IMG/VR virus record: IMGVR_UViG_3300049172_000079
Span: 1 to 53,176 of that record
DNA length: 53,176 nucleotides
From: a virus
Lineage: Duplodnaviria > Caudoviricetes
Direction: 5' to 3' (one strand)
Made by a program: the position numbers and the translations under genes. Of the stretch, positions 1,035-53,176 are shown piece after piece. The first letter of the stretch is position 1; every line of letters begins with the position of its first letter. Under the pieces are notes generated by a model. The model had not been told where the DNA came from. It saw nothing but the letters and a program-made list of their open reading frames with translations, and made no database searches.

Positions 1035-1249
1035 CGGTCGTCCCCTGCGGGCTCGGCACCGCAATGGGGGCAGGTCTGGGCTTCGAGGTCGACGCAGACG
1101 ATGCAGTCGTGGCCGACGCCGTCGGACACCTCGGGTGTGTCGCTGACGTCGAAGCCGCAGAGGGCGGTGTCGGGGTCGCAGCAGAAAACGTGCGTGGTGT
1201 CGTTGTCGAAGCCGGTCGTCCCAGCGTCGGGGGCGAGGGCGGTGTTCAT
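1031..1249 (-). CDS. Small Cys-rich hypothetical protein
   Basis: HxxCC, CxxC, CxxC; overlaps both neighbours by 4 nt. Confidence 0.6.
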   Translation of the reverse strand: MNTALAPDAGTTGFDNDTTHVFCCDPDTALCGFDVSDTPEVSDGVGHDCIVCVDLEAQTCPHCGAEPAGDDR

Positions 1250-4933: not shown

Positions 4934-5817
4934 GCTGCTGCTCCGAAGATCGCGGTGTACTGGGTGCGCAGGGCCTCACGCATTGGCTGGTCCTCGACGT
5001 GCTCCGGGGCAACGCAGCTGACGTAGCCACAGCCCGGCAGGACGCGGCCGACCGGTTCGCGCTGGTTGGCGATGCGGAAGGCGAGCCGGCGGCCCATGTA
5101 GTTGTGGCCGCAGTACATGAACACCGGCGTGGTGCCGTCCCGCAGGGAGCCAGTCCATTCGAGGTGGCCGCCCGTGGTGGGCTTGGTGAACGTGCGCCAC
5201 TTCTGTTCGAGAGTCAGGGACGGCTTCCGCTTGCTCTTCGGCAGGCCAAGCTCGGAACGGATGCGGCTGACGCGTCGGGTGGCGGTGCTCAGGGCGCGGG
5301 CGATGTACCGGTCCGAGTGGCCCTCCTGAAGGAGGGCGATGATGTCCGCGCGGGACGGCCCGACTGAGCGGGGTGCCCGGTTCGGGAACGACCGCTTTCG
5401 TGCGCGGCGCATCACGGTGTCCTCGACGTGCGCCCCAGCGACGCAGCCCTCGGTGTCGCACCCGGGGTAGACGATGCCCTGAGGGTCGCGGCCGTGGTGG
5501 AGGCGGAACGCGACTCGGTACGCGGACTCCATGGAGCGGCAGTGCTTGATCATGGGTGCGTGGCCGCCGGTGCGGAGGCCGGTCCACTCGACGTGCCCGT
5601 CGGCGCGGGGGACCGCGTGCGCGCGGTAGGCGTCCTCGACGCTGGCGTAGGCGGGCGGCTGGCCCTGTCGTGGCGCGGGGAGGCCGAGCGTCTTGCGAAC
5701 GTTGCCGACGGTGGGCCTGCTGACGCCGAGTTGGCGGGCGATGGCGGACTCGGTCATGTCACCACGTCGCAGCAGCGCGGCGATCTCCTCACGGGACACG
5801 GGCAGCGGGCGGGGCAT
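4930..5817 (-). CDS. Protein with two tandem HTH plus degenerate HNH-like modules
   Basis: Two repeats of HTH followed by GHxEWTG...R.AF...V.PGC....CVA..HVED. Confidence 0.7.
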   Translation of the reverse strand: MPRPLPVSREEIAALLRRGDMTESAIARQLGVSRPTVGNVRKTLGLPAPRQGQPPAYASVEDAYRAHAVPRADGHVEWTGLRTGGHAPMIKHCRSMESAYRVAFRLHHGRDPQGIVYPGCDTEGCVAGAHVEDTVMRRARKRSFPNRAPRSVGPSRADIIALLQEGHSDRYIARALSTATRRVSRIRSELGLPKSKRKPSLTLEQKWRTFTKPTTGGHLEWTGSLRDGTTPVFMYCGHNYMGRRLAFRIANQREPVGRVLPGCGYVSCVAPEHVEDQPMREALRTQYTAIFGAAA

Positions 5818-13869: not shown

Positions 13870-14760
13870 ATGAGCTGGATCGTTCTCGCGGCTGGGCTCG
13901 GCGTCGCTAACTTCATCGCGGTTGTGCTGCTCTTCCGGCGGCTGAGGCGTGACCTCGGTCGGCAGCTGCGCGACATGCGTGCCGAGCGCAACAGCGAACT
14001 GATACTGCACGCCCTGCGGGACGTGCCCGAACAACGAGAGCAGGCGGCTCAGGTCGCCAACGGAAGCGGAGGGACCGAACCGTCACCCGGCGGCCCGCAA
14101 CCGGTCCGACGCAAGCGGCACCTGGGGCTGTTCATCGGGGGCGGTGTCGCGGCACTCGCCGCAACGCTCAGCCACGCATTGCGGGAAGCCTGGCAAACCC
14201 AGCGATGGCAGCTGATAGGAACCGCGGCGGGGGTGGCCGCAGCCGCCGCGACCACCGTGCTCCTTCTGGCTTATCAGCCGTGGGAGGACGGTGACAGCCA
14301 CGCCCCGCCATCCTCCGCACCGACGGCGGAGCCGCCTGTCACCCGCCCACCCGGCTACACCCAGCCGCCGCCCGACAGCACGCGGCCCAGCGAGCCGACG
14401 TCCAGTGCCAGCCCGCCACCATCGCGGAGCGGGCCGGAGCCGAACGGCAGCGCCACGCCCAGCGAGTCCGCGTCTACGCGACCGCCGGCAACCACATCGC
14501 GGGTGCCCAGCGTCGAGTCTTCCGGACGGTCGTCGGTGCCACCGCCGCCACCAGACAGGCAGTCGCCACCAGACAGGGTGCCGCCACCAGGCGGCGAGCC
14601 GCCGTCCACGGCGCCCGAGCCGCCACCCGCAACGCCCACCACGCCACCGCCAACAGGCAAGCAGCCACCACCGCCACACGCCCCAGCCCACTGCGCCAGC
14701 CTCACCGTTCCGCCTGTGCTCAGCATCGGGTTGTGCATCCTCGGCCGGGGCGCTGGCTGA
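13870..14760 (+). CDS. Membrane protein with Pro/Ser/Thr-rich C-terminus
   Basis: Three hydrophobic segments, a long P/S/T tract and a terminal C-x10-C. Confidence 0.65.
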   Translation: MSWIVLAAGLGVANFIAVVLLFRRLRRDLGRQLRDMRAERNSELILHALRDVPEQREQAAQVANGSGGTEPSPGGPQPVRRKRHLGLFIGGGVAALAATLSHALREAWQTQRWQLIGTAAGVAAAAATTVLLLAYQPWEDGDSHAPPSSAPTAEPPVTRPPGYTQPPPDSTRPSEPTSSASPPPSRSGPEPNGSATPSESASTRPPATTSRVPSVESSGRSSVPPPPPDRQSPPDRVPPPGGEPPSTAPEPPPATPTTPPPTGKQPPPPHAPAHCASLTVPPVLSIGLCILGRGAG

Positions 14761-14776
14761 AACAGAGAGGGGAACA

Positions 14777-16018
14777 GTGGCAGAGATCAAGAAGGTCGTG
14801 CTGGGTAGCGGCAAGGTCCGCTACCGCACGGTCATCGACATTGGCCATGAGCCGAAGAAGGACAAGGTCACCGGTGAGGTGATCACCAACCCGGTGACCG
14901 GTAAGCCGGTGATGAAGCGCCTTCAGCTCACCATCACCAAGGACAAGAAGAAGGATGTAGAGGCTGAAGTCGCCCGCATCCGCGGGCAGATGGCCGCTGG
15001 GACGTACATCGCCAAGAGTGACATCACCGTGGCGGAGTGGCTGGATGAGTGGCTTCGGATGAAGGCCAGGGACATCGAAGCGACATCCATTCACGGCTAC
15101 CGGAAGTCGCTGGTCCACATCTACAGCATGCTGGGGCACGTCCGCCTCCAGGAGCTGAGCGAGGACATGGTGCAGGACTGCGTCGACCGCATGGTGACGC
15201 AGGGGAGGCGCAGAAGCGGCACGCCAGGCACAAGGCTGGCGGTGAGCACTGTTCAGCACGCCATCGACCGGTTCAGGCAGGCCCTGGCCCGGGCGGTCAC
15301 GCGGAAGCTGATCCCGGAGAACCCCGCGAAGTTCGTGCGGGTCTCCCTCGTCGACCGGAAGGCGGACAAGCGGGAGCGGCGGCGTGAGAAGCCGTGGACC
15401 GTGGCCGAAGTGCAGCTGTTCATCAAGGGCATCCAGGACGACCGGCTACACGCCCCGCTCCTGATGAGCCTGATGGGCCTGCGGCCGGCCGAGGTCTGCG
15501 GGCTGCGGTGGACTGACGTCGACCTCACGCTCGGCACCCTTGAGACGGCCATCACTCGCACGATGGTTTCCAACAAGACGGTGGTGGAGAAGGACGCCAA
15601 GACGGAAGCCGGTGAGCGCGTCCTGCCGCTGCCTCAGGGGGTATGGGAGGCGCTGCGGAGGTTCAAGGCCCGGCAGGCCGCCGAGAAGCTGGCGGCCGGC
15701 GAGGCCTACACCGACAGTGGCCTCGTGGTCGTGGACGAGCTCGGGGTGCCGGTGAACACTCGGCAGTTGCGTGAGCAGCACGCGTATCGGTTGATGGCCG
15801 ACCTGGGTCTACGCAAGGTGCGCCTGTACGACGCCCGGCACTCGTGTCTGACGTACCTCGCGAACAAGGGGGTGTTGGATCACATCTTGGCGGCGTGGGC
15901 CGGGCATACGAATGCGGGCTTCACGAAGAAGAAGTACGTCCACCCGGATGTTGAGGATCTGCGTTCGGCTGCTGCGGTGTGGGATGGCTTCCACGGTGGC
16001 GAGACGGCGCGGTCGTGA
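14777..16018 (+). CDS. int: Tyrosine integrase
   Basis: GLRPAE, KT, RLYDARH, WAGH, KKY catalytic motifs; N-terminal TVAEWLDEWL. Confidence 0.95.
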   Translation: MAEIKKVVLGSGKVRYRTVIDIGHEPKKDKVTGEVITNPVTGKPVMKRLQLTITKDKKKDVEAEVARIRGQMAAGTYIAKSDITVAEWLDEWLRMKARDIEATSIHGYRKSLVHIYSMLGHVRLQELSEDMVQDCVDRMVTQGRRRSGTPGTRLAVSTVQHAIDRFRQALARAVTRKLIPENPAKFVRVSLVDRKADKRERRREKPWTVAEVQLFIKGIQDDRLHAPLLMSLMGLRPAEVCGLRWTDVDLTLGTLETAITRTMVSNKTVVEKDAKTEAGERVLPLPQGVWEALRRFKARQAAEKLAAGEAYTDSGLVVVDELGVPVNTRQLREQHAYRLMADLGLRKVRLYDARHSCLTYLANKGVLDHILAAWAGHTNAGFTKKKYVHPDVEDLRSAAAVWDGFHGGETARS

Positions 16019-16756: not shown

Positions 16757-17875
16757 TCACCAGCGGATCGTCTGCCCCTCCGGGGTGACGGTGACGATGA
16801 ACTCCTCCAGCGCCGGTGCGCCGGCCTTCACCCAACGGCCGAACTGCTCCTCCACGGCGTCCCACAGAGGCTCCGGTCCGCCCTGCCGGACGAGCCACCG
16901 GCCGCTGTCCTGGTACACCGCGGCCCATGAGCCGGTGTCGACGTCGACCAGGACGTCCTCTGTGTGCCCGTCCCGCTGCATCGTCAGGCGCTGGGCGCCT
17001 GGCACGGCGAACTGCACGACGAACCGGGAGGTCCAGTTGTTCAGCACCTCGGCCCCGGTCTGGGTCTCGCGTTCCTTGCCGGCGTCGAGGTCGGGAAGTA
17101 GGCCGAGCGGCGGCGGCATGTGTGGGCGGGCGAGCATGAAGGACACGGCCCCGCCCAGCAGCGGCCCGGACGCTGTGCCGTCCTGGTGGACTGTGAGGCG
17201 TGCGAGTTCGGATGATCCGAGCCATCCGCCGACCGTCGCCAGGATCAGGCCGCCCGGCCGGGTCTGCTCGACCCACGCCATGGGCACCGTGCGCACGCCG
17301 CAGGTCGCGATGACCCGGTCGTAGGGGGCGCCCGCGCCGTGGCCGAGGAGGCCGTCGCCTGTGACGAGCGTCGGATACGTGCCGAGGTGGCCGAGGGCCG
17401 CCCGGGCCCGCGATGCGACCCAGGCGTCGTACTCGATCGAGGTGACGCACTCGTCACCGAGCCGCGCGCAGAGCAGGGCAGTCGAGTAGCCGGTGCCGGT
17501 GCCGATCTCCAGCACCTTGTGCCCGTCTTCGGCCTGGAGGTCCTCGAGCATGCGCAGCACGAGGGAGGGCAGGGTGCTGGAGCTGGTCGGCTCGCGCGTG
17601 ATCCGGCCGCGCAGGTCCTCGGGCACGATCGTGCCGGCGATCTGGGTCACCAGTGACTCGTCGGTGTAGCAGCCTTCCAGCCAGTCCGGGTCATCTTCCC
17701 GGATGGGCTGCCACGCGGTGAAGTCCGTGCCGACCGCCCGCCGGAAGTACCCGCCGCGTAGGAACTCGTGCCGGGGGACGGTTTCGGCGGCGTGCTTCCA
17801 CGGCGCCGTGCGCAGGCTGCCGCTGGCGGTCATCTTGTCGAGGAGCTGCCTGTGGAGCTGTTCTTGATCGGTCAC
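16757..17875 (-). CDS. tgmC: ATP-grasp peptide system methyltransferase (PIMT-like, aspartimide-forming)
   Basis: VPRHEF, SSSTLPS, VLEIGTGTGY, GDG..G, PYDRVIATC; coupled to the ATP-grasp gene. Confidence 0.9.
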   Translation of the reverse strand: MTDQEQLHRQLLDKMTASGSLRTAPWKHAAETVPRHEFLRGGYFRRAVGTDFTAWQPIREDDPDWLEGCYTDESLVTQIAGTIVPEDLRGRITREPTSSSTLPSLVLRMLEDLQAEDGHKVLEIGTGTGYSTALLCARLGDECVTSIEYDAWVASRARAALGHLGTYPTLVTGDGLLGHGAGAPYDRVIATCGVRTVPMAWVEQTRPGGLILATVGGWLGSSELARLTVHQDGTASGPLLGGAVSFMLARPHMPPPLGLLPDLDAGKERETQTGAEVLNNWTSRFVVQFAVPGAQRLTMQRDGHTEDVLVDVDTGSWAAVYQDSGRWLVRQGGPEPLWDAVEEQFGRWVKAGAPALEEFIVTVTPEGQTIRW

Positions 17876-18819
17876 GGTGTCCTCTCCAGAAGGTCGGCCA
17901 GGGCCGCGCACATGGGCAGGCCGGTCTCGTCCTCCAGCCAGTGCCACTGGCCGGAGGGGTTGCACTCCAGGAACCACCATCGGCCGTCCTCGCCGAGGGC
18001 AAAGTCGAAAGCCCCGAAAACGAGCTTGAAGCGGTTCATGTAGCGGTGGAGCGCCGGCCGGATTCCGGGCGGCGCCTCGACGGGTGTGTAGGTCAGGCGG
18101 CTGTAGTCGATGCGCCAGTCGAGGAGGCCGGAGTCGATGCGGACGCAGAACACTTCGCTGCCGATGACGGTCACCCGCACGTCGGCGACCTTCGGGACGC
18201 GCTGCTGGAACAGATGCGCCGTACCGGCCACCGCGTCGTCGATGTCCGCCTCGGACACCTCGGCGACCTTCACGGCGGACGAGACGCCGTCGACTCGGTA
18301 CACCGGGTTGCTCAGTGGCTTGTAGATGACCGAGCCGTGCGCCTTGATGAACTCGCGGGCAGCGTCGGGACTGGACGTGATGAGGGTGGGCGGCAGCAGG
18401 AACCCGGCACCAGCGGCCGCGGCCAGGCCGGACGGCTTGAATTCCGCGTCGCCGATGCGGTGCGGGTGGTTGACGTAGAGGCAGTCGGGCAGCGAGGCCA
18501 GGACCCCGCCGAGCCCGTACCGGGCCTGGGTGAGGGCGAACCGGGCGTCCTGCTCGTCGAGGTGCGGGAACGCGAAGCCGGTCGGCCGGCGGTAGTACAG
18601 GGCGCGCACGTTCGCGAGGTCCGCGGTGCGGGAGGGCGTGAGGAGACGGCCCTGTAGGCCGTGCTCGGTGATCTCGGCCTCAACCGACAGTGATGCGGGG
18701 AAGTCCCCCGGGTCGAGCCGCACGACCGGGACGCCCCGGCCGTGCAGCTCGCTGATCACCACGTCGGCGGTGGGGTCGTGCAGGCTGGTGACGACCAACA
18801 CCGGACGCGGATCAGTCAC
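17872..18819 (-). CDS. tgmB: ATP-grasp ribosomal peptide maturase (graspetide ligase)
   Basis: DPTADVV, YYRRP, AEFKP, PPTLITS, IYKP, FQQRVPK..DVRVTVIG, DWR, FGAFDF, FLECNPSGQW. Confidence 0.93.
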   Translation of the reverse strand: MTDPRPVLVVTSLHDPTADVVISELHGRGVPVVRLDPGDFPASLSVEAEITEHGLQGRLLTPSRTADLANVRALYYRRPTGFAFPHLDEQDARFALTQARYGLGGVLASLPDCLYVNHPHRIGDAEFKPSGLAAAAGAGFLLPPTLITSSPDAAREFIKAHGSVIYKPLSNPVYRVDGVSSAVKVAEVSEADIDDAVAGTAHLFQQRVPKVADVRVTVIGSEVFCVRIDSGLLDWRIDYSRLTYTPVEAPPGIRPALHRYMNRFKLVFGAFDFALGEDGRWWFLECNPSGQWHWLEDETGLPMCAALADLLERTP

Positions 18820-21096: not shown

Positions 21097-21642
21097 ATGA
21101 CCTCTCGTGTGCTGTACCTCTTTGGTTCCGCGGCCCCTCCTGTCTTCGACATTGCGTCCGTGATTGAGGACGCGCAGCGGCGCGGCTTCGACGTGTGTCT
21201 CGGTCTCACCCCGACCGCGAACCGCTGGCTCGGCGGCACGCTCCCCGAGCTGGAGCGCCTTACCGGGCATCCGGTGCGGTCCGAGTACAAGCTGCCCGGT
21301 GAGCCCGACGTGTGGCCCAAGGCCGACGTCATCTTGGTGGCGCCGGCCACCTTCAACACGGTGAACGCGTGGGCGCTCGGGCTGACGCACGACTTCGTTG
21401 TCGGTGTCGTCGCGGAAGGGGTCGGCAAGGGCATCCCGATGGTGGCGATGCCGTGCGTGAACGCGGCGTACGTGCAGCATCGGCAGTTCGAGCGGAGCGT
21501 GGGCGAGCTGCGGGAGATGGGCGTGGAGGTGCTTTACGGAGAGGGCGGCTTCGTGCCGAACCAGCCGGGCCAAGGCCAGCCGAAGGAGTACCCGTGGCGT
21601 CTCGCGCTTGATGCGGTCGAGCGGGTTGTGGCGGGCCCGTAG
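21097..21642 (+). CDS. HFCD-family flavoprotein
   Basis: LFGSAA, TPTA, DVILVAPATFNTVN, PCVN. Confidence 0.85.
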   Translation: MTSRVLYLFGSAAPPVFDIASVIEDAQRRGFDVCLGLTPTANRWLGGTLPELERLTGHPVRSEYKLPGEPDVWPKADVILVAPATFNTVNAWALGLTHDFVVGVVAEGVGKGIPMVAMPCVNAAYVQHRQFERSVGELREMGVEVLYGEGGFVPNQPGQGQPKEYPWRLALDAVERVVAGP

Positions 21643-28183: not shown

Positions 28184-31100
28184 CAGCCAGCCCCCTGCCC
28201 CAGCGACCGCTGAACGCTGCCGCCCCGGTTCGCGATCTCCTTACGCAGCGGGTCGAAGATCTGCTGCGCCACGACACGGCCGTCCAGGGTGATCGTCTGG
28301 TGCACGACGATCGGCTGCGCCCCGCCTCCGGCCGGCATGGGCGCGTACCGTGCGCCGCCGCCGCGCTGGGGGGTGTTGAGCATGGAGGACCAGGCGCCCT
28401 GCTGCATCATGCGGCGGGTGTCCGGCCCGGAGTACACCCGGCTGCCGAACGGCAGCCTGACGAGCTCGGGCTCGTGCTCGCCGACCATGGTCCACGAGCC
28501 GCGGGCCCCGCCCGATGCGGCGCCGATGATGCCGCCCGCGGCTTTCATCCCGAAGCCCTTCTCGACCATCTTCTCCATCGCCGACGCGAGCTTGTCCATG
28601 GACGAGGTGAGCTTCGACTGCTGGCGGGCGAGCTTGTCGACCAGCTTGTCCTGCATCGCGATCGCCGTCTTGTACACCGCATCCGACGTCGTCTTGCCCG
28701 CCGACGTCGCCGAGCTGTTGATCTGCGACTGCAGCGAGTTCATCGACTTGATCTCCGACGACGACGCGTTCAACAGCGCACCCGCCGTCTCCAGGCCGCC
28801 GCCGTCGATGCCGGCCTCAGCGATCTGCTGCAGCAGCTTCGGGTCGAGACCCTTCTTCTTCAGGTCGGCGAGCGCTGTCGAGAAGCTGGTGGCTTTGTCG
28901 CGGGAGGCGGTGAGGCCGCCCATGACCGAGGCGACGGTGACGGGGCCGTCGCCCTGCCGCTTGGTGATGTTCGCCGAAGAGAGGATGCCGGACTTCACCG
29001 AGTCGGCGAGGGACGCGGCGGCCTGCTTCAGCGAGTCGAGCTTGCTCCGTGCGGTCTCAAGGCTCTTGTTCACCGACGTGAGTTGCTTCTCGTAGGTGAG
29101 GAGCTTCTTGCCGGTGGAGTCGAGTGCCTTGAGGAGGTTCTTCTCGGTGCTGCCGTGCGTGGCGGCCCGGATCTTGGACGCCCACTGGTTCAGGTTGTCG
29201 ATCAGCGACCGCATGCTGTCCGGGTTGCCGAGCTCGGACCGGAACTCGGAGCGCTGGTGCCCAGCGAACTGCCCAAACCGGCTGATCGTCAGATCACCGC
29301 GGGCGTCCTTCCGGGCCTGCGCCTCCGCCTTGGACACCTTGCCGCCCCGCGCGAACGCGGCGACCTTGAGGGTGCCGCGGTTGACGGCGTCCATGAACCC
29401 TTCGCCGTACCGGCGCACGCTCGCCGCGCGGATCACGTACTCGCCAGCGGAGAGCATCGCCGGGATGCTGTCCGACGTTTCGCTCCCCGGCCCCACCACG
29501 CGGCCGCCGTCGGGTGAGCCGCCGCCCGCGAGGCGGATCGGGCCACCCTGCGCCCGGAAGCGCGGCTGGTTCTGCGACTCCACCACGCGCTGGTACACGT
29601 TGATGTACGCAGTGCCGACGACGTTGCCGCTGATCGCGCGCACAGCTGCGTCGAAGAAGCTGCGGTTTGCGCCGATCCCGACCTTCTTACCCGGGAGCTT
29701 CGTGCCGTTGACATTCTTCGCCGTGCCGAAGAACTGGCGCGCGTCGGCCGTGATGCTGGCCTCGGCCTTCTTCCTGTCGTACGCGTCCAGCTGGGAGCGG
29801 GCGTCCCGCAGCGCGGCCTCAGCCTCCGACTTGTCCGCGGACAGCTTCGCCTTCCGCTCCCGCGTGAGGTTCTTGTCGTTCAGCTTCTCCTTGATGCTGC
29901 TGAGGTTCGCCTCTGCCTGCTTGACGTCGAGCGTGAGCTTCGCCCTGCCCAACTTGTCGTTGGCCGTGGTGGCGAACTCGCCGATCTTCCCGTTGACCCC
30001 GTCGAGGGTCTCCTTCGCGCCCGTGGCCCACTCGTCGAACCGCTCGTTCGACGCCTTCAGCGCCTCGCCGATACCGGGGATGTTCCCGAACGCCATCGCC
30101 AGACCGGAGATGACGAGGTCGGCGGAATCGATCGCCGTCTTCGCCATCAGGGTGAAGCCGGAGCTGAGCAGCGGCAGCCACTGGATGCCGGTGTTCACCA
30201 TGTCGATGATCGTCTGGCCGACCATGACGAACGCCCCGCGGATCTGGGTCTCGTGCTCCTGCACCCAGTTCGACAGGCCCCGGAAGCCCTCGCCCAGGGT
30301 GGACACGTCAACGCCGGAGACTGCGAGCAGGGACTCGACGAGGGCGCCGCCGAGGACGCTCGCAAGATCACCGGCCACCTCGAAGCCGATCCGGCCGACC
30401 TCGTTGAACGACCTGAACACGTCGGCGAGGATGTGCATGGTGGGCTCGACGCCCTCCAGCGCCCCCTCAAAGACCGTCGCGAAGCCTTCGAGAGCCAGAC
30501 CCGCCCCACGGAAGGCTTCGCCGAGCAGCGGCCCGAACGTCTCAGTGAAGGCGCCCGCGATCTTCCCCAACGACGGCAGCAAGCTGTCGTTGATCATCGA
30601 CGCCAAGCCGCCGAGCAACTCCGACGAGCCGCCGATGCCCTGCTCCAGCCCGTCGAACATGCCTGGCAGGCCGGTGTCGAGGAAGCCGCCCAGGAGGCTG
30701 TCCCACGCGTCCAGGGCGGGCTGCGACTTGGCACCGAACTCCAGGAACGCCTGCGTGAACGAGCCGATCGACCCGGCGAAGTCCTCGAACCACGCGCTGC
30801 CCATCTTGACGTTGGTCAGCAGCGCCGACTGGAACGCTGGGCTGTCGGCGAAGCGGCTGGCCTTCTCCGTGATCCGGCCGAAGGTGTCCGCCCCGGTCTC
30901 GATGACCGGGGTCAGGTCCTTCATCGCCCCCTTGAGGGACTTGACGGCCTTCTCCGTGTGCGGGGCGACGGCCTTCTCGGCGACCTTCCGCCAGTCCTCG
31001 AACGCCGGCTTGAGCTCCTTCGCCTTCGCCTTGAGGTCGTCGAGCGCCAGCGCCCCACCACCGACGACGGCCGTCATCCCGAACAGCATCGGCGACAGCG

Positions 31101-45897: not shown

Positions 45898-46148
45898 TCG
45901 AACCTGTGTATCGCGTCCGATGCGACGGTTCCGGTGAGGAGTGGGTGGCGGCGCCAGAGAGCCTCCCGCCTCCTGCGAAGGTTATGCACTTCGTCACCGT
46001 CGCTACATACGAGCGGGCGGCCAGGTTTGCCACGGAGGCGGATGCCGTACAGGGAGCCGTGAGCGCAGGCTGGCGGCCGACGGCGGATTGGCAGAAGTGG
46101 CTATGCCCCTCGTGCTACTTCATACAGGAGAAGCAGCCCACCGCATGA
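45894..46148 (+). CDS. Hypothetical protein
   Basis: GAGGAG RBS; CD...AGW...CPSC. Confidence 0.5.
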   Translation: MIEPVYRVRCDGSGEEWVAAPESLPPPAKVMHFVTVATYERAARFATEADAVQGAVSAGWRPTADWQKWLCPSCYFIQEKQPTA

Positions 46149-46190
46149 CGACGGCCCCGCCCAATCCGGGCGGGGCCGCTGCGTGTCCGT

Positions 46191-46574
46191 CTACGGCTCC
46201 GGCGTGATCTCCGCCGTCAACTCCTCGGTCACCTGGTCGATCGCCGCTTGCAGCTCGTCGTCCGACAGGCCGCCGCACGCGTTGTACCCGGGCGTGGCGT
46301 CGATCTCCTCCGAGTCGTCCAGCAACTCGGCCTTGATCCACGTCCGGCACTCCGGCGACACACTCACCGACGGGGAAGCCTCCGGCGCGGATGCGGCCAC
46401 GCTCGGGGTGGAGGTGGGCCCCGCGCTGGCCCTGCCGCTGCCGTCGTCGCGGGACTGCGCCACATACACGCCCGTCCCGACAATCGCGACGATCAACGCG
46501 GCAGCCGACCCGATGATGACCGCGTTCGTGCGGCTCCTCCGGGGCGGCGGGTAGTTCGGTGGCGGCTGGTGCAT
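46191..46574 (-). CDS. Single-TM membrane protein
   Basis: Pro-rich start, TM segment, S/P linker, two Cys. Confidence 0.6.
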   Translation of the reverse strand: MHQPPPNYPPPRRSRTNAVIIGSAAALIVAIVGTGVYVAQSRDDGSGRASAGPTSTPSVAASAPEASPSVSVSPECRTWIKAELLDDSEEIDATPGYNACGGLSDDELQAAIDQVTEELTAEITPEP

Positions 46575-46712
46575 GGTCCCCCCAGGTGGTGTGTGTGCTG
46601 GGGTGAATGATGCGCCCGCGTGAACGAGTCGTGAAGGCGCTGTTCCTGTTCTGTGACCCGAATCCACCCGAACCGGTAGCCGTCCCCTGCCGGTAACAGC
46701 CACACTGCGGGC

Positions 46713-46886
46713 ATGGACGACGTGGTGTACATGGTGCGCGGCGGCACGCGAGACATCTGCCAGCGCGAGCTCGACCGGCTCTGCGAACTCCTCGACGCCC
46801 GCCCGACGATGCGCCCCTCCGACAGCACCGGACGCGGCTGGGTAGCCCGCGCCGTCCCCGCCCGCCAGCCCGAGCCGGCCGAGTAG
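46713..46886 (+). CDS. Small hypothetical protein (57 aa)
   Basis: CACACT-N6-ATG; followed by a stem-loop at ~46898-46935. Confidence 0.5.
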   Translation: MDDVVYMVRGGTRDICQRELDRLCELLDARPTMRPSDSTGRGWVARAVPARQPEPAE

Positions 46887-46972
46887 GGCATACGAAAGCC
46901 CCGCCGACCCCTGGGGGGGGATGGGTCGGCGGGGCGTGCGCGGTGCGTCGCGTTCTCAGTGTTGCAGCGCTG

Positions 46973-47122
46973 TCAACTCGCCCTCGGGCCCTGCTGCGGG
47001 GTGCCGGGGACGGGCTTCTCCTCCGGCTTCACCCAGCCGCCGCGCGACCCTTGATAGTCCGTCTCGTGGCCCTGCAGCCGAGGGTCGTCCGGCTTGATGG
47101 GCTTCTTGAATCCGAGTGCCAT
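46973..47122 (-). CDS. 49-aa hypothetical protein
   Basis: MALGFKKP...; last gene of the membrane operon. Confidence 0.45.
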   Translation of the reverse strand: MALGFKKPIKPDDPRLQGHETDYQGSRGGWVKPEEKPVPGTPQQGPRAS

Positions 47123-47207
47123 GATGGCGGTCCTGTCTCTTCGTTGGGATGGGGACCGGGGCGTGGCCGCGCTCTTCTTGGCGGATGGGAGCGGCCCGCC
47201 CCGGGGT

Positions 47208-47855
47208 CTACTTCGCGGCCTTCAGCCAGCGCACGAGGGTGCGGTGGGGGCGCTCCTCGTCGGGCACCGTCTCGAAGCCACGGCTGTTGTTGTTGTCGTT
47301 GTTGTTGCTGGTCAACGACCCCTCTTGGGCGGTCTCCTCGCCGGGGGAGGGGAGCGGCGGGAAGTCGCTGCTCTTCACGCCCGGGGAGACGGCCACCCGC
47401 CGGCCCTTCATCCGCACCCCTCCAGAGGTGGGGATGTCGGCCGCGGCGAGGGCCTCCCGTACGGCCTCGGTGGAGGCCTTCAGGTGGTCGGCGAGGGCGG
47501 TGGTGTGGGCGTGCGGTGCGCCCACCTCGTGGAGGGCCTGGACCAGCTGCTCGCGGGTGATCCCGCCGGGGGCCTGGGCGGGCTGCTCGGGGGTCTCGTC
47601 GGCGGCCTCGGCGGGCGCCGTCGGGGCGGTCGGGTCGGGCAGGCGCAGGCCGGTCACGACCGCGGTGACGAGCCACCCGACGGCGAGCAGCACGGCGATG
47701 CGGGTGGTCCAGGGCAGTCCCTTGGCGAACCCGGCGAGGAAGAGCACGAGCACGAGCTTCCCGAACGCGCCTGCTGCTCCCCCGCCTGCCAACCAGCCAG
47801 CGATGGCGGTGCAGATGCGGGAGGAGCCGGTCCACACGGCGATCCAGACGCGCAT
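47208..47855 (-). CDS. Membrane protein with HTH-like C-terminal part
   Basis: TM segments, then AHTTALADHL...VREAL...GVR...VSPGV; Asn run. Confidence 0.65.
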   Translation of the reverse strand: MRVWIAVWTGSSRICTAIAGWLAGGGAAGAFGKLVLVLFLAGFAKGLPWTTRIAVLLAVGWLVTAVVTGLRLPDPTAPTAPAEAADETPEQPAQAPGGITREQLVQALHEVGAPHAHTTALADHLKASTEAVREALAAADIPTSGGVRMKGRRVAVSPGVKSSDFPPLPSPGEETAQEGSLTSNNNDNNNSRGFETVPDEERPHRTLVRWLKAAK

Positions 47856-47856
47856 G

Positions 47857-48306
47857 TCAGCCGCCCACCATCATCAGGACAGCGGCAGCGAACTGGACGG
47901 GTGCGGCCCACACGGAGCCGTCTCCGGCGGCGGGCCACACGAATGAGGCGATCATCCCGACGGCAGCGGCGGACGCCGGGTTCAGCGGCGCGGCGATCAT
48001 GATGATCAGCAGGAGCAGCGCGACCGCTCCGATCCCCACGTCGCCAAACGGCCCGTCACCTGAGCCGACGCCGAGCCCGGTCAATCCCTGCTCGGTAATG
48101 CGCCCGGGGTCGGCCCAGATCTTCCCGGCCGCTACGTAGGCGGTGCCGGCTAGGAACGCGGTGATGAGGGAGCCTCGCACCTCGAACTTGATCTTTCCCT
48201 TGCCCATGACGCCGAACACGAGGAGCGCGGTCGCGCAGATGGCGATGCCACCGTTGCCGAGCACGCCGAACACGGCGCCCGAGGTGGTGGGTGCTGCGAG
48301 GTACAC
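47857..48306 (-). CDS. Multi-TM membrane protein
   Basis: About 4-5 hydrophobic Gly-rich segments; AGGAG RBS. Confidence 0.7.
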   Translation of the reverse strand: MYLAAPTTSGAVFGVLGNGGIAICATALLVFGVMGKGKIKFEVRGSLITAFLAGTAYVAAGKIWADPGRITEQGLTGLGVGSGDGPFGDVGIGAVALLLLIIMIAAPLNPASAAAVGMIASFVWPAAGDGSVWAAPVQFAAAVLMMVGG

Positions 48307-48314
48307 GGGGGCTC

Positions 48315-48869
48315 CTAGAACAGGGCGTTGGGCGCGTGGAGCGCGGTGGCGAGGAGAGCGGTGGACATGGGGATGCGCAGGGCCCACAGGACGGGCGGAC
48401 GGGTACGGGTGGGCAGGATGCGGACGTACCGCTCCCCTACGACCTCGGCGGCGAACCAGCCGAACCCGGCGAGCGCGAGGCCGGCCGCGGAGCCGCCGGG
48501 GCCGAGGGTGTCGAGGAACTCGGCCATCGCGTCGTAGAGGCCGAACGTCCAACCGACGCCGGCAGCGGCGCCGTGGACGAGGAGCCAGCGGCGGGCGCGG
48601 GCTTGGCGGTCCTGGGCGCGGGTGTCGACGGGCTGCGGCGCCGGTGGGGGTGGCGGGGTGAAGGTGATGTGCCAGCCGGGCGGTGGCTCACTCCCCTCGC
48701 TGGGCTGATCGCCGGCTGCTGGTTCTTTGCCGACGGACCACCAGTGGGGTTCCTCGTCCGGGGCGGTCATCGGTGTCCTTCGCGGGTCGTGGGTGTGGCC
48801 GAAGGGGCGGACGTGGCGGGCGCGGAGGAACGCGCGGGCGCGCAGCTCGTCCCCGCCCACCGCGCTCAT
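48315..48869 (-). CDS. Membrane protein
   Basis: Pro-rich N-terminus and three TM segments; coupled. Confidence 0.65.
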   Translation of the reverse strand: MSAVGGDELRARAFLRARHVRPFGHTHDPRRTPMTAPDEEPHWWSVGKEPAAGDQPSEGSEPPPGWHITFTPPPPPAPQPVDTRAQDRQARARRWLLVHGAAAGVGWTFGLYDAMAEFLDTLGPGGSAAGLALAGFGWFAAEVVGERYVRILPTRTRPPVLWALRIPMSTALLATALHAPNALF

Positions 48870-49822
48870 GAGGCGGTGCGCTCGATGCGGGTGCGTGTCC
48901 GGCGGACGGTGTCGGCGGACACGGTCTGTCCGTGGATCTTGCGGACGTAGGACAGGACGGCGTCCTTGTCCGTGATGCCGGACGCGAGGGCTGTCCGGAT
49001 GGTGTCCGCGACGGTCTGTCCGGGCGGGGCGATCGGACGGACGGGGCGGACGGGGCGGCGCGTTGACCTGCTGTCCGTCGTGTCCGGACGGCTGTCCGTG
49101 TCCTCGTCGAGGACGTCGCGGATGGTGTCCGTGTCCGTGTCGATTCCGGCGGCGGACAGGTGGTCGACGATGTCCTCCGGGGTGGCGTCCGGGAAGGTGT
49201 CCGCGGCGGCGCGGACAGCGGAGCGGACGGTGGCCGTGCCCCGCTTGTCCGGGCGGCTGTCCGTGTCCGGCGGGGTGATCTGGTGTCCGGTCTGGACGGG
49301 GTCGAGGAGGTCGAGGCGGACACCGACCGCACGGCGCAGCGTCGTCCAGGAGCGGCCCGGGTACATGACCCAGCCGAGCGCGGGGATGTGCGGGAGCCGT
49401 TCGGCGACGAGGCCGCGGGCGGAGCGCTGCTCGTCGCGGACGTCACGCCGGTGGAGTTCGAAGAGGAGCTCCACCCCGGCTGAGAGGGAGGCGAATCCGG
49501 CGGCGGCGGGCATGCCGCCGATGTCGTGGCCGTGGTTCCAGTTGAGGAGTCCGGCGACGGACACGAAGGCGAGGAGCGCGGCGCGGGCGAGGCCTGCGGG
49601 GGTGCCGCGTTCGACGGCGCGGCGGGCGTAGGTGGCGCAGATGAGTCCGGCCGCGTCGAACATGATGGAGAGGGGCCAGGCGAGCCACTCGTCCATGCCC
49701 CAGTCCATGAGCTGCCCGGAGAGGGACCAGGCGGCGGCGGCGAGGAGCATGCCGAGGACGAGCGCCCAGGCGGCGCGGATGGGCTGGGAGAGTCTGCGGC
49801 CGGTGGCGCGCGTCGTGTTCAC
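48866..49822 (-). CDS. DUF2637/Spd-like four-TM protein with C-terminal helical (DNA-binding-like) repeats
   Basis: Four TMs with PLSIMFDAAG and LNWNH; LPHIP.LGW..YP..SW; GAGGAG RBS. Confidence 0.7.
   Translation of the reverse strand: MNTTRATGRRLSQPIRAAWALVLGMLLAAAAWSLSGQLMDWGMDEWLAWPLSIMFDAAGLICATYARRAVERGTPAGLARAALLAFVSVAGLLNWNHGHDIGGMPAAAGFASLSAGVELLFELHRRDVRDEQRSARGLVAERLPHIPALGWVMYPGRSWTTLRRAVGVRLDLLDPVQTGHQITPPDTDSRPDKRGTATVRSAVRAAADTFPDATPEDIVDHLSAAGIDTDTDTIRDVLDEDTDSRPDTTDSRSTRRPVRPVRPIAPPGQTVADTIRTALASGITDKDAVLSYVRKIHGQTVSADTVRRTRTRIERTAS
48896..49322. repeat. Dispersed array of 20 TGTCCG/CGGACA hexamers
   Basis: 16 TGTCCG and 4 CGGACA counted on the + strand. Confidence 0.85.
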
Positions 49823-49869
49823 GGTGCTCCTCCGGGAGCGGGTCGGCGGTGGCGGGGTGTGGCGGCGGC

Positions 49870-50205
49870 TCAGCGCAGGGCGCACTCGTCTTGCAGCAGC
49901 TCGACCATCAGCGGCCAGTCCAGAGAGTCGTCGCCGCTGGCGCCGTTGCGCATGTGGGCGGCGGCTTGCTGCGGCGTGAGGAGGGTGACGGAGTCGCAGT
50001 ACGTCTGCCGCTCGGCTTCCGTGGCGATGGCCCAGGTGATCTCGAACGTTTGCCGGGTGTGGCCGGCGAGGTCGTCGGGGGTGAGGCTGGGCTCGGGCTG
50101 GACTGCAACTGTGTCGGTGGGGTCGGGCGTTTGCTGGTCGCTGTTGCAGGCGGTGAGCGCCAGGCAAGCGGCGGCGAGGAGCGGGAGGATGTGGCGGAGT
50201 CTCAT
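49870..50205 (-). CDS. Lipoprotein
   Basis: Signal peptide with LTAC lipobox. Confidence 0.75.
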   Translation of the reverse strand: MRLRHILPLLAAACLALTACNSDQQTPDPTDTVAVQPEPSLTPDDLAGHTRQTFEITWAIATEAERQTYCDSVTLLTPQQAAAHMRNGASGDDSLDWPLMVELLQDECALR

Positions 50206-50287
50206 GCGTGGGTCTCATCTCGGTGTTGGGGCCGCCCCGCGCGGCCGTGGGGGAACGGAATCGCGCGGGGACGGCGATCGGGGGTGG

Positions 50288-50482
50288 TTACCAGTTGGTG
50301 CGGCGGTCGCCGCGCTTGTCGCGGGCGCGGTCCTGCTGCTCCCAGGCTTCGGCGGCGGCTCCGGCTTCCCGGGCGCCGCGGGTCTTGGAGCGGCGGAAGC
50401 GGCTCGCGGAACCGGTGACGGACACGCCGGCGGCCGGGTAGCTGCGGCTGCTGGTCTGTTGGCGGCGGGAGAAGAGGCCCAT
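50288..50482 (-). CDS. Small basic protein
   Basis: MGLFSRR...; GGGGAG RBS; coupled. Confidence 0.6.
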   Translation of the reverse strand: MGLFSRRQQTSSRSYPAAGVSVTGSASRFRRSKTRGAREAGAAAEAWEQQDRARDKRGDRRTNW

Positions 50483-50655
50483 CAGCGGTGCTCCCCTTGG
50501 TCCTGCCAGCCGAGGCGGTCGCGGATGTCGGCGGCTTGGGCGTAGTCCTGTTGCGCCAGCTCGACGGTGGCGGGTTCGGCGAGGATCCGGTTCGGTTGCG
50601 GCGCGAGGGTGCTGGGGGTGGGCGGTTGTTGTTGCGTCTGGGTACGCTGCTCCAC
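50482..50655 (-). CDS. Small hypothetical protein, first gene of the membrane operon
   Basis: AGGAGAG RBS before GTG. Confidence 0.5.
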   Translation of the reverse strand: MEQRTQTQQQPPTPSTLAPQPNRILAEPATVELAQQDYAQAADIRDRLGWQDQGEHR

Positions 50656-50738
50656 GGTCTCTCCTGGTCACGTCAGGGGATGGCTGGCCCCGACGGGAGG
50701 TGCAACTCCCGTCGGGGCGTACTTGTTGGTGCCGTTCC

Positions 50739-50774
50739 AGAGTGCACGTTCTGCTTTACAACGTCAAGCAGAAC
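50739..50774. promoter_or_regulatory. Leftward promoter overlapped by inverted repeat GTTCTGCTT-N9-AAGCAGAAC
   Basis: Minus strand TTGACG-N17-CACTCT; perfect 9-bp arms at 50748-50756 and 50766-50774. Confidence 0.65.
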
Positions 50775-50789
50775 AGGGAGGATGTTGCC

Positions 50790-51332
50790 GTGCCCAAGAG
50801 CCCTGAATCAGAGGGGAGCCCGCGCTTGATGACAGTCACCGAGATCGCGGCGGAGCACGGGGTCAGCCGTCAGACGATCCACACGTATCGGCGGACGGGC
50901 ATCTTCCCTTCCCCTGTTGAGGGCGAGGGCAGTACGCGGCCACGGTTCCGTGAGGACGAGGTGGACGCGTTCTTCGAGGCGAACCCCAAGCAGCCGCGCA
51001 AGAAGCGCAGGCCCCAGCCCGACCAGCAAGGAGAGCCAGTGACCACCACGACCGATCCGCGTATCGCGATCCTGTCCAGCCTGAACGACCCCCCGTACAA
51101 CGAGAGGGCGGAGAAGCGCTGCGTGCCGTGGGACGACGCGGTGAAGATGCTCGACGCCTATCGGGCCGCCGTCGTCGCCGAGGTGGTCGACGCGTTGACG
51201 GCGAAGGGGGCGGAGTTGTCGGAGCTGGCGGAGGAGGAGATGCGGCCGAGTCTGGAGGAGCGGGCGCAGACGTGGTACGAGGCCGCTGAGGTGGCGGAGA
51301 AGCTGAAGCAGGCGAAGGCGGAGGAGGGCTGA
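50790..51332 (+). CDS. AlpA/excisionase-like HTH regulator with C-terminal extension
   Basis: LMTVTEIAAEHGVSRQTIHTYRR.G.FP.P. Confidence 0.75.
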   Translation: MPKSPESEGSPRLMTVTEIAAEHGVSRQTIHTYRRTGIFPSPVEGEGSTRPRFREDEVDAFFEANPKQPRKKRRPQPDQQGEPVTTTTDPRIAILSSLNDPPYNERAEKRCVPWDDAVKMLDAYRAAVVAEVVDALTAKGAELSELAEEEMRPSLEERAQTWYEAAEVAEKLKQAKAEEG

Positions 51333-51595
51333 TGGCCCGTCTCGATGCCAGGCCCGCGCTGAACGTCCACTACGCGACCGATCCCCGCATCCGGCATCTC
51401 GCCGAGGCTGTGTGGCGGTTGCGGACGGGTGGCACCCGGATGGACTGGCTGATGCTCGGCAAGGACAACCCGGAGGCGCTCATCGGGGAGGCGCGTGAGT
51501 GGGTGCGCGCGGCGGTCGCTGCCGGGCTCATGGAGCCGCCTCGGGATGATCCGGGTTGGAAGACGGCGGCACACCGCGCCGCTGAGGAGGAGTAG
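51332..51595 (+). CDS. Hypothetical protein
   Basis: Coupled; GGAGG RBS. Confidence 0.6.
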   Translation: MARLDARPALNVHYATDPRIRHLAEAVWRLRTGGTRMDWLMLGKDNPEALIGEAREWVRAAVAAGLMEPPRDDPGWKTAAHRAAEEE

Positions 51596-51803
51596 TCGTG
51601 GTGAATCTCGTGCAGTGGCTCAGGCGCCCCTGACCCGTACGTAGCTGCGCCCCGGCCGTCGTGACCCGGTCGGGGCGTTTCGCTGTGCAAGCACCGCCCG
51701 AGACGCCAGAGCAGGGACGGGAACGGGCGGCACGATCAGCGTCGCACGCCCGTCAAGCTGCTCCCGGGATGCCGCTGTCACACCCCTGCGGCAGGCTGAC
51801 CCC

Positions 51804-52010
51804 ATGCGTACGGTGATCGTGTTCCCGCCCGATGAGCAGGGCGGCCGGCGCGTCCGCTCCGGCAGCGAGATCCTCGGCCGGGCGACCAGCCTCCGGGATG
51901 TCGTGGAGTTCCTGCGGCGCGCCGGCCTGGACGAGGTGGACGAGGCCTATGTGCGGCGCACGGCGCTGGTCGAGTGGCGGGGTGGCGGGCCGGACGTGTG
52001 GGAGCACTGA
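51804..52010 (+). CDS. Small hypothetical protein
   Basis: CAGGCT-N6-ATG; GGRRV...ILG.A...EFLRRAGL...EWRGGGPDVW. Confidence 0.65.
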   Translation: MRTVIVFPPDEQGGRRVRSGSEILGRATSLRDVVEFLRRAGLDEVDEAYVRRTALVEWRGGGPDVWEH

Positions 52011-52300
52011 CGGCGGTCTTCCGCTCCGGCCGGGTGTGGGCGTACGGTCGTGGTCTCCCCGTCGGGGAGTGCCCTTGGAGGCGCTCGGCCCGCCAGTCCG
52101 CAGGGGTGCGGGACGGCGGGCCATGTGCTGTCCGGGCATGCGAGAGCCCTCCCTACGCGCGGCAGGGAGGGCTTCGTGGTCTCCGGGCCGGGCTGCTCAC
52201 CACATGCGGCAGGCGCGCCACAGCATCTCTGCCGCCCAGGAGCAGCGGTGTCCGGCGAGCCAGCAGCCGAGGCGGTCGAGCTGGCGGGTGAGGCGGAGCA

Positions 52301-52726
52301 TCACGGTTGCGCCTTCCAGTTGGGGCCGCGTAGGGCGGGCGGGACGCTGCTCGTGGGCTGGGCGCTGAGGAGCCGGACGATCGCACTGAGGTTCGTGACG
52401 CGCGGCTCAGGGCGTTCGCCTTCCTGCGGCCGGTCGAGGGTGGCGAGGATCTCGTCGGTGATGCCGTGCGCATAGGCGAGGTCGAGGAGTTCGGGGCAGT
52501 CGTTGAGGTTCTCGGTGACGGGGTAGTCGTACTCGCTTTCGGTGCCGCAGCCGTGGCACATGGCGGCCTCAGCCCAGTAGGCGTCGGGGTTGAGCCGGTG
52601 TCGGGCGAGGATGCGCCGGTCTGCCTCGCAGCGGCGGAGCGCGTTGGTGGGGTTGAGGATGTGGTCGAGGGCGTACTCCTCGGCCGCGTCGATCTGTTGG
52701 GTGATCCAGCCGTGCAAGTCAGGCAC
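52301..52726 (-). CDS. DUF6221-like phage protein
   Basis: LRRCEADRRILARH...C..C...CPELLDLA. Confidence 0.6.
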   Translation of the reverse strand: MPDLHGWITQQIDAAEEYALDHILNPTNALRRCEADRRILARHRLNPDAYWAEAAMCHGCGTESEYDYPVTENLNDCPELLDLAYAHGITDEILATLDRPQEGERPEPRVTNLSAIVRLLSAQPTSSVPPALRGPNWKAQP

Positions 52727-53147
52727 CGGGGGTCTCCTTGTGCTTCCAGTCGGCCATGCCGCAGCGGGCGCAGAGGCCGCTGTCCTCGGGCTTGGTGGGC
52801 GGCTGGTAGGCGGCGCATACCGTGCCGTCGGTCGTTCGGGTCGCTGCCGGGCCGGACGCGGGCTCGACGAGGGCGTCGAGGACGGCTTGCCGGGCGCGGT
52901 CCCAGCCCATCTGCACGCCTCTGCTGCGGTCCCCGAGGATGGGCATGTCGTAGGGCGGGAGGGCGGCGCGGACGCGGGTGATGGCGGCCTCGGCCTGCTC
53001 GGCGCGTCCCGCGTACGACCCGGCTGCGGCGTTGGCGCTGTCGGCTTCGGCGTAGCAGCGGGCGGTGTACTCGGCCTGTTCCAGCCGCTCGTACAGGGCG
53101 TCGAGTTGGTCGCTGGTGAGGTCGTCCAGCTTGATGCGGTCGGTCAC
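52719..53147 (-). CDS. Hypothetical phage protein
   Basis: LDDLTSDQLDALY...RAEQAEAAITRVRA. Confidence 0.6.
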   Translation of the reverse strand: MTDRIKLDDLTSDQLDALYERLEQAEYTARCYAEADSANAAAGSYAGRAEQAEAAITRVRAALPPYDMPILGDRSRGVQMGWDRARQAVLDALVEPASGPAATRTTDGTVCAAYQPPTKPEDSGLCARCGMADWKHKETPGA

Positions 53148-53176
53148 TGCTGCTCCTGGTCGGGCAGGTTGAGGTC

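Follow-up and report, generated by a model that had tools for sequence, protein, structure and literature searches.

A dense array of CGGACA hexamers within a DUF2637 membrane protein gene of a temperate Streptomyces phage and its possible role as a one-gene DNA tether

The DNA analyzed here, referred to as the window, is the whole of IMG/VR virus record IMGVR_UViG_3300049172_000079, a complete virus genome of 53,176 nucleotides (nt) with a G+C content of 69.7%, and the subject of this report is one of its genes, located on the minus strand at 48866..49822, which encodes a DUF2637 membrane protein of 318 amino acids (aa) with two C-terminal helix-turn-helix (HTH)-like bundles and harbors a dense array of CGGACA hexamers in its 3' half. 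Since the genome encodes a tyrosine integrase (14291-16018), possesses a minus-strand structural module that begins with the terminase at 43.5 kb and extends to the endolysin at 22.8 kb, and has Streptomyces phages and prophages as its relatives, it is that of a temperate Streptomyces siphovirus-type phage. The protein matches DUF2637 (Pfam PF10935) above the gathering score (E 1.9e-6, 28.3 bits against a cut-off of 22.8, aa 26-168) and phrog_10376, a family of unknown function, over its full length (2.8e-93), shares 85% identity with gp82 of phage Kromp, and, when started from the GTG at 49822, has the same length as the annotated Kromp gp82; no NCBIfam family matched it.

The array spans 427 bp (48896..49322) and consists of 20 hexamers (29 if the degenerate word CGGACR is counted), 16 of which are in the sense orientation of the gene (TGTCCG on the plus strand) and four in the antisense one (CGGACA on the plus strand, at 48916, 49153, 49212 and 49317), with an irregular spacing of 6-55 bp; a 21st hexamer of the gene is found at 49558. 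An earlier note on this DNA, made from the letters alone, had located the 20 hexamers and placed them in all three codon phases and both orientations, and every one of its coordinates proved correct on re-scanning, as did the phases once the sites were mapped onto codons: 11 are read as xCG-GAC-Axx (x-D-T/S/K), three as xxC-GGA-CAx, two as CGG-ACA, and four are antisense. The genome-wide count of the hexamer is ordinary (63 against 51.9 +/- 6.5 in shuffled sequences, with 5 of the 100 shuffles reaching 63), and the 43 copies in the other 52.7 kb predict about 0.35 per 427 bp, but the local clustering revealed by a k-mer scan is extreme, as a sliding interval of 400 bp contains up to 18 copies at the array and at most 3 anywhere else, making this the sole such cluster in the genome. 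The motif is best refined as CGGACR, often with G or C next: CGGACA is seen 20 times against 4.5 expected, CGGACG 9 times against 3.6, and CGGACAG, the most over-represented extension, 8 times against 0.63, while CGGACC and CGGACT are absent against about 3 expected, all 29 CGGAC pentamers thus preceding a purine. GGACAG occurs 9 times in the gene against 0.85 expected, and CGACA, which arises when the preceding codon has C last, is depleted (2 against 5.9). Outside the array, a perfect 12-bp palindrome, TGTCCGCGGACA, is situated at 29832-29843 within the tape-measure gene, the sole other such pair being TGTCCGnnnCGGACA at 18243-18257.

The protein sequence accounts for only about 4.5 of the 20 sites, and the proposal of the earlier note that selection acts here on the DNA itself therefore holds. 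Resampling of synonymous codons according to the usage of the phage yielded 4.49 +/- 1.68 hexamers (maximum 12) and permuting the gene's own synonymous codons yielded 5.97 (maximum 13), with none of the 5000 replicates of either kind reaching 20, so that the array is not explained by amino-acid content, an outcome that had been named beforehand as a possible refutation; the N-terminal half of the gene, for comparison, has one site against 0.59 expected. A context-aware control, which keeps any codon-context bias of the phage, gave the same picture: 20 of the 28 peptide contexts compatible with the word are realized here against 31 of 321 in 49 other open reading frames (ORFs) (Fisher p 6.6e-13), and the phase-specific rates from those other ORFs predict 4.47 sites. 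Rare codons are recruited as well, ACA within CGG-ACA being used in 2 of 4 contexts here and in 1 of 72 elsewhere, and GGA within xxC-GGA-CAx in 3 of 3 here and in 1 of 61 elsewhere. Sense and antisense sites alike exceed their expected numbers (16 against 4.0 and 4 against 0.47, respectively), as would be expected of a double-stranded DNA site, with no polar signal needed; a polar motif of the Chi or KOPS kind is not favored, as the 16:4 strand bias is that of the coding baseline (4.0:0.47). The density of word-compatible contexts is itself about seven times that of the other ORFs (28 per 159 codons here, 321 per 12,673 there), and the need for these DNA words has probably molded the protein's linker peptides (PDTDSRPD, DTDSRPDTTDSRS). 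Fourfold-degenerate sites within the motifs have a conservation of 0.78, compared to 0.70 in the rest of the C-terminal half and 0.72 in the N-terminal half.

In an AlphaFold2 model of the protein, made with 38 homologs, the DUF2637 core comprises four predicted transmembrane helices (13-40, 45-71, 76-102 and 104-135) over aa 13-135, encoded on the minus strand, as are all the parts that follow, at 49418..49786, a stretch in which the motif is not enriched, and an extra helix is found at aa 148-173. Next come a disordered, D/T/S/P-rich linker 1 (aa 173-195, 49238..49306; pLDDT, the predicted local distance difference test score, <50 at aa 173-184), whose peptide PDTDSRPDK has several motif copies in its coding DNA; an HTH-like three-helix bundle 1 (aa 196-244, 49091..49237; helices 196-209, 215-224 and 231-244, pLDDT ~85); a motif-dense disordered linker 2 (aa 245-270, DTDSRPDTTDSRSTRRPVRPVRP, 49013..49090; pLDDT <50 at aa 245-259); and an HTH-like three-helix bundle 2 (aa 271-317, 48872..49012; helices 271-280, 286-297 and 303-317, pLDDT 88-92), the last helix of which is basic (SADTVRRTRTRIE). 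T274 and R276 of bundle 2 are invariant in a 14-sequence alignment (A1), and only R276 of these in a 38-sequence one (A2). The membrane anchor assumed by the earlier note is thus matched by a predicted four-helix DUF2637 domain (Pfam, AlphaFold2), which would insert into the membrane; of the "two helical winged-helix-like repeats" it had described, the helical domains are present in the model, but neither has a beta wing, which leaves the term winged-helix-like unsupported, and the two bundles give no BLASTP alignment with each other, the connection being one of DNA repeats spaced 165 nt apart that link the two linkers.

The C-terminal tail looks DNA-binding, judging by the two confidently modeled three-helix bundles, sub-threshold HTH matches and fold lists dominated by HTH proteins. 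HTH_Tnp_Tc3_2 (PF01498) matches aa 205-240 with an E of 0.097, and reaches 6.2e-5 and 4.3e-4 in two homologs (L025 and P0146), all three being under its 31.5-bit cut-off, while the fold-match lists consist mostly of DNA-binding HTH domains (the N-terminal domains of Fur/Zur and ArgR, Pax, Mos1, SETMAR, and the C-terminal HTH of WhiA), the bipartite Pax6, SETMAR and Mos1 being listed by Foldseek at weak E of 2-4.5. Foldseek of the full model against the PDB returned nothing at E <=0.001, the family profile found nothing under E 0.09 among the sequences of solved structures, and the tail as a query in the ESM Atlas retrieved unnamed clusters alone, with a best score of 0.76.

The array is not peculiar to this phage, as close homologs (79-91% identity; Kromp, five IMG/VR contigs, and Streptomyces prophages) have 17-27 copies each. 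In an unbiased test, the hexamer with the highest z-score against synonymous resamples was picked for each gene and set against the top value of 150 nulls. Among the 25 genes that share the tail, the most distant of them at 49% identity, 22 had a GGACA-core word (CGGACA or GGACAG) that beat every null, and the 5' halves gave one positive out of 33, which was marginal and concerned an unrelated word. The individual sites fall at 61 different aligned positions over the 25 sequences, i.e., the array is kept and its positions shift, and the 49%-identical homolog from Yinghuangia has 10 CGGACA against 1.3 expected, mostly at positions of its own. At one locus (L021), 8-9 copies are found in the 400 bp directly upstream of the gene, partly in non-coding DNA, and at another (L017), which also has a weak array in the gene, a stretch of 105 bp situated 2.7 kb upstream contains 8 copies, so that the array is tied to the gene and not to the coding region. 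Other hexamer clusters were seen at some of the related loci (L001 ~8671, L013 ~7968 and L032 ~7782, also L027 ~3577 and L030 ~3), consisting of 6-7 GGTAGA/TCTACC, 9 AGCTAC or 6 ACCTAG and situated 2.7-3 kb downstream of the DUF2637 gene, between it and the terminase region.

Checking whether the arrays of homologs co-vary with the C-terminal domain, as the earlier note had suggested, gave a positive answer. A profile of the tail retrieved 67 matches from 1.84 billion representative proteins, mostly of 310-395 aa and with the domain at the C-terminus, and many of these constitute a second family, whose N-terminal membrane domain is another one (distantly DUF2637-like) and which was found in 39 of the 401 Streptomyces genomes searched. 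Some of its members (P0136, P0146 and P0174) are named "protein transporter Sec31" at NCBI, a name that seems wrong for HTH-tailed membrane proteins of bacteria. A second-family protein (L039) aligns to the DUF2637 protein in the tail only (38% identity over aa 202-317, E 3e-16), and its gene has GGACAG 12 times where 1.5 would be expected; elsewhere in that family, tail clades have other words in the same part of the gene and in all three codon phases, namely TCCGGA (8-11 copies against ~1 expected), CGGATC (12-15 against 1-2, mostly as CGGATCCG palindromes) and CGGTGC (12 against 2.0). The reverse combination is represented by L023, in which the N-terminal family of the window protein is joined to a different, single-HTH tail, and which has seven CGCATC/GATGCG within 150 bp (5537-5686; 0.7 expected, at most 3 in 3000 resamples), using the rare codons GAT, GGT and CGT; here a distinct tail goes with a distinct word. 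Of seven homologs whose tail is unrelated, none had an array.

Scoring the last 480 nt of 62 non-duplicate genes (L007 and L008 having been dropped as identical to L003 and L004) identified a significant array in 41, and in 38 of the 46 genes of the HTH cluster (22 of the GGACA type, nine TCCGGA and seven CGGATC). As single-linkage clustering of the last 60 aa had put all HTH tails into this one cluster, finer classes were taken from a tree of the last 60 residues, a short and weakly resolved one (61 columns, 24 of 43 forks open), on which the three motif labels require 4 changes against 13-16 in the 10 printed label shuffles, or 11 against a shuffled mean of 21.6 when the genes with no array are included as a group (as low in 0 of 200 shuffles). 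Relatives of the second family also occur on small actinobacterial plasmids, and one such gene, with a CGGATC array (L071, 8006-10131 and flanks), is positioned directly after a gene for a HerA/FtsK-like ATPase and near a serine recombinase and an AAA_25/DUF3854 primase-helicase-like gene, in what looks like an integrative and conjugative element rather than a prophage.

The neighboring genes are not kept along with this one. The best-conserved neighbor is present in 10 of 32 related loci; the three co-oriented genes downstream (47208..48869, minus strand), which according to the ORF list encode small predicted membrane proteins of 184, 150 and 215 aa, are not kept with the array (0, 0 and 3 tblastn matches in the 32 loci), and the co-oriented lipoprotein-like gene upstream (49870..50205, minus strand, 111 aa; phrog_22340, 1.1e-4) is present in one. 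Six of the 52 ORFs of the window have any tblastn match in Kromp, the DUF2637 gene being by far the best at 85.5%, and megablast of 46000-53176 against Kromp aligned at this gene and its immediate edges only. The gene thereby stands alone, at 88% nucleotide identity, between two phages with almost nothing else in common, which suggests a recent horizontal exchange of this single gene between them. An FtsK/SpoIIIE domain was found in none of the six frames of the whole phage, using a search whose control found the domain in 12 of 14 reference genomes, a ParA-like (AAA_31) ATPase had no match in the window, and no ParA/ParM-type family turned up in Pfam and PHROG scans of the ORFs, with no search aimed at ParM made. 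Given the tyrosine integrase and the lack of a ParA-like match, the plasmid-type centromere proposed by the earlier note is unlikely; the clt-like or tether role that it proposed alongside is a reasonable analogy.

The reading that we favor, with a probability of roughly one half, is that the 3' half of the gene is a cis-acting array of protein sites, that its most likely binder is the protein encoded by the gene, and that the two would form a one-gene membrane tether. Self-binding is suggested by the co-occurrence of array and gene and by the lack of any other conserved partner gene: with no such partner and with a motif that follows the tail, reading of the array by the gene's own tail would be the simplest account. 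The anchor would be the four-helix DUF2637 domain, embedded in the cytoplasmic membrane, and the flexible tail would present two HTH-like bundles, each reading one short CGGACR word of 6-7 bp, so that the dense array could be held by many bundles together via avidity, i.e., by weak contacts adding up. As each bundle would read one short word from a flexible linker, irregular spacing (6-55 bp) and mixed orientation would be tolerated, and as the sites are inside the gene, recombination in mosaic phages could not part the protein from its site. Such a one-gene module might fasten its own phage genome to the membrane, with the in-gene location favoring action in cis, on the very genome that is being transcribed and translated there. 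What this would serve could be the organization of replication or packaging at the membrane, as with p16.7 of phi29 and AlpAC of CGP3 (PMC4974454, PMC4446434), the moving, retaining or spreading of phage DNA in hyphae, as proposed for Spd proteins and actinophage homologs (PMC4447253), or possibly regulation.

The closest counterparts are found on Streptomyces mobile elements. Membrane-anchored TraA/TraB proteins bind to arrays of short repeats situated at their own gene's 3' end (PMC3583192), and the clt of pWTY27 consists of four TGACACC, that of pJV1 of nine 9-bp repeats, and that of pSVH1 of 8-bp repeats read by the winged HTH of TraB (PMC3583192, PMC4170104). The DUF2637 locus resembles these in belonging to a Streptomyces mobile element, in its membrane anchor, in the crowding of 20 hexamers into the gene's final 430 bp, and in motifs that differ between elements; clt proteins read their 7-9 bp repeats via a C-terminal HTH, and here an HTH-like tail is predicted that may bind in a similar manner. 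It differs, however, in that neither the DUF2637 protein nor the phage has the FtsK/SpoIIIE motor domain, in having about 20 copies of a 6-bp word wholly within coding sequence (clt having 4-9 copies that are mostly non-coding), and in residing in a tailed temperate phage; homology of the tail HTH to that of TraB was not detected in structure-sequence and fold searches.

In the SpdA-sps system of pIJ101 and related plasmids, SpdA2 binds palindromes within its own gene, thereby imposing the peptide motif SRDD/E, the sps sites of pSVH1 and pEN2701 lie upstream of the gene instead, and the SpdA2-sps interaction affects plasmid maintenance (PMC4170104). In-gene sites and a shaped peptide are thus common to both, and the upstream relocation in some elements matches what is seen at L021, but SpdA proteins are small and soluble (117-163 aa) with an N-terminal DNA-binding region, compared to 318 aa and an N-terminal membrane domain here, and have 1-3 copies of one conserved 12-bp palindrome, CGTCACGTGACG (PMC4170104), compared to the far more numerous copies here. 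This palindrome has no match in the window at <=2 mismatches, and no sequence relation between SpdA and the DUF2637 protein was seen. With no motor, no sps palindrome, another protein family, a higher copy number and a fully coding array, the DUF2637 locus belongs to neither TraB-clt nor SpdA-sps, though by analogy it may work like them. SpdB2 of pSVH1, involved in intramycelial spreading, is reported to bind DNA non-specifically, and its published description mentions no site array (PMC4447253); a tblastn search of a plasmid collection with the DUF2637 protein gave only one weak DUF2637 match.

Two phage systems are also comparable. The alpS of the Corynebacterium glutamicum prophage CGP3 consists of 24 short repeats bound by the phage adaptor AlpA, and resembles the present case in being an array on an actinobacterial prophage; the system positions phage DNA mostly at the membrane and is required for replication to be efficient, but it is a two-component system with an actin-like AlpC filament, its repeats are in a promoter region, and its adaptor is not a membrane protein (PMC4446434). 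The p16.7 of phage phi29, an integral membrane protein, binds the DNA of its phage and brings replication to the membrane, but it contacts the terminal protein and displaced strands, and a specific site array is not described in the portion of the source considered (PMC4974454); no sequence match was found between the DUF2637 family and solved structures.

Several observations weigh against a tether that reads its own gene. A 6-bp word is short for specific recognition, and the fold matches of the tail (best Z 7.2; Foldseek E >=1.5) are weak, below the level that the tools treat as meaningful. Eight of the 46 genes in the HTH cluster have no significant array, and neither have three of the 25 same-tail genes within the gene itself (L021, L017 and L030), the last of these having no array within +/-5 kb. 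A 32-nt stretch of linker 2 recurs 165 nt away within linker 1 (repeat families D4 and D7), and this old internal duplication supplies part of the copy number. The clustering of motifs on the tail tree can be no proof of co-evolution, since kin share labels; the domain combinations, i.e., like tails with like words on unlike membrane domains, are the stronger argument for the motif-tail link. A CGGA core is shared by all motif classes, which may leave room for a loosely specific host factor. Finally, in Kromp (L033), the same half-site makes up two palindromes around gene 38, annotated as the immunity repressor: TGTCCGCGAACGCGGACA directly upstream of this gene and TGTCCGTGTCCGCGGACA at its 3' end (the pair at 30440-30457 and 30721-30738), within an immunity region that has nine copies of the hexamer in 510 bp, and, as these operator-like palindromes flank a repressor gene, the word may be read by a regulator, or the DUF2637 protein may be a regulator and not a tether.

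Among the alternatives, the one that survives best, albeit as an unlikely one, is that the array is read by a different protein and that the gene is only its host, whether as a clt-like site for the TraB of a resident plasmid or integrative element, in which case phage DNA would be pumped between hyphal compartments, or as a site for a host DNA-binding protein. The arrays of short repeats that make up clt adjoin or overlap the 3' ends of tra genes (PMC3583192, PMC4170104), the second-family gene of L071 stands beside a HerA/FtsK-like ATPase and others of its kind are on small plasmids, and a CGGA core is common to the motif classes. Yet FtsK_SpoIIIE is absent from the six frames of the phage and did not turn up in those prophage surroundings that were inspected, the array has no further gene accompanying it, and the motif goes with the C-terminal domain of its gene in both N-terminal families. 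Homologs from a single host genus, moreover, display at least three motif classes, which speaks against one host factor reading them all.

Rather improbable, too, is a role in transcription, in which the protein would act as a regulator in membrane-anchored or cleaved form and the array as its autoregulatory operator or a roadblock, with the protein controlling its own operon, possibly as part of the lysis-lysogeny switch, instead of tethering DNA. The Kromp palindromes are in keeping with this, as is the array of L021, which covers the divergent promoter region upstream of the gene, but at least 20 sites over 430 bp of coding sequence are far beyond the needs of an operator, comparable palindromes were not seen in the window's own regulatory regions, and the Kromp repressor has no homolog in the window, so the operators may be that repressor's own.

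That the array is a replication origin, with iterons in the initiator gene, has very little going for it. Iterons within the initiator's own gene are the lambdoid rule, and the lambda ori lies partly in linker-coding DNA, as does part of the present array; the phage, however, has a separate lambda-O-like replication initiator gene (1246-2043, minus strand; phrog "replication initiation O-like", 5.5e-26) with its own four to five 21-bp-spaced repeats (GTTCGGGGTTTCTGC-like) at 1652-1792, which are probably the phage origin and a second in-gene set of sites for a likely binder in the same genome. The lambda arrangement of a protein that binds repeats in its own gene is thus present there, whereas the DUF2637 protein has no initiator domain and matches no replication family, its array is irregular and of mixed orientation rather than made of phased iterons, and the GC skew shows no turn at it; the origin was accordingly ruled out on the separate initiator with its iterons and the absent skew turn.

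Just as implausible is the lack of any DNA-level function, i.e., an array that is a by-product of a D/T/S/R/P-rich tail, internal duplication and local codon habits, for although compatible contexts are denser here, DTDT runs yield tandem copies, and the 32-nt repeat attests to duplication, this reading is largely refuted by the codon controls, and the recruitment of the rare GGA and ACA codons, the enrichment of the antisense orientation, the L021 copies in upstream non-coding DNA, the somewhat higher conservation of fourfold-degenerate sites in motifs and the same behavior of tail classes with other words all speak against it. A terminase recognition site was rejected, the array being about 5.4 kb from the small-terminase gene and TerS, found in 4 of 32 loci, not being conserved with it. 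The motif of WhiA-type sites is GACAC, and such sites are not favored, as GACAC is seen 13 times against 8.8 expected and GGACAG, which does not contain it, 9 times against 0.85.

As for the rest of the window, the phage also encodes WhiB-like, exonuclease and HNH proteins, and genes for an MvdD-type ATP-grasp, a PCMT-type O-methyltransferase and a flavoprotein near the integrase (16757-18819 and 21097-21642) form what looks like a small graspetide-like peptide-modification moron. A promoter scan of 46000-51000 gave no sigma-70-like sites, and a search for structured RNA gave no Rfam match at E <=1 within 48000-50800.

Returning to the favored reading of a protein that binds an array inside its own gene, DUF2637 is an uncharacterised family that is common in actinophages and actinobacterial mobile elements, a search of full-text (not subscription-only) literature found nothing on its function, and full-text literature on DUF2637, or on SpdB2 together with phage, gave no description of such in-gene arrays. 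The locus suggests a function for DUF2637 that can be tested, as the protein and its putative cognate sites are fused in one gene. In a broader and more tentative view, which we consider possible but somewhat less than an even bet, DUF2637-type proteins with HTH tails would be a widespread and hitherto undescribed class of self-addressed one-gene DNA tethers of actinobacterial phages, integrative elements and small plasmids, each gene holding the sites of its own product inside or just upstream of the coding sequence, with the specificity classes (CGGACR, TCCGGA/CGGATCC, CGGTGC and CGCATC) serving as incompatibility-like identity tags; DNA would be attached in this way to the membrane or the septal cross-walls without an FtsK motor, allowing for a plasmid-like positioning or spreading of phage DNA in Streptomyces hyphae. 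The anchoring or movement of phage genomes in hyphae is an idea that has been raised, without evidence, in the Streptomyces conjugation literature (PMC4447253), and the tether, if true, would reveal by what means a tailed phage fixes or shifts its genome inside mycelial hosts, would constitute a clean natural case of DNA-level selection reshaping a linker sequence, and would provide a set of short orthogonal protein-site pairs.

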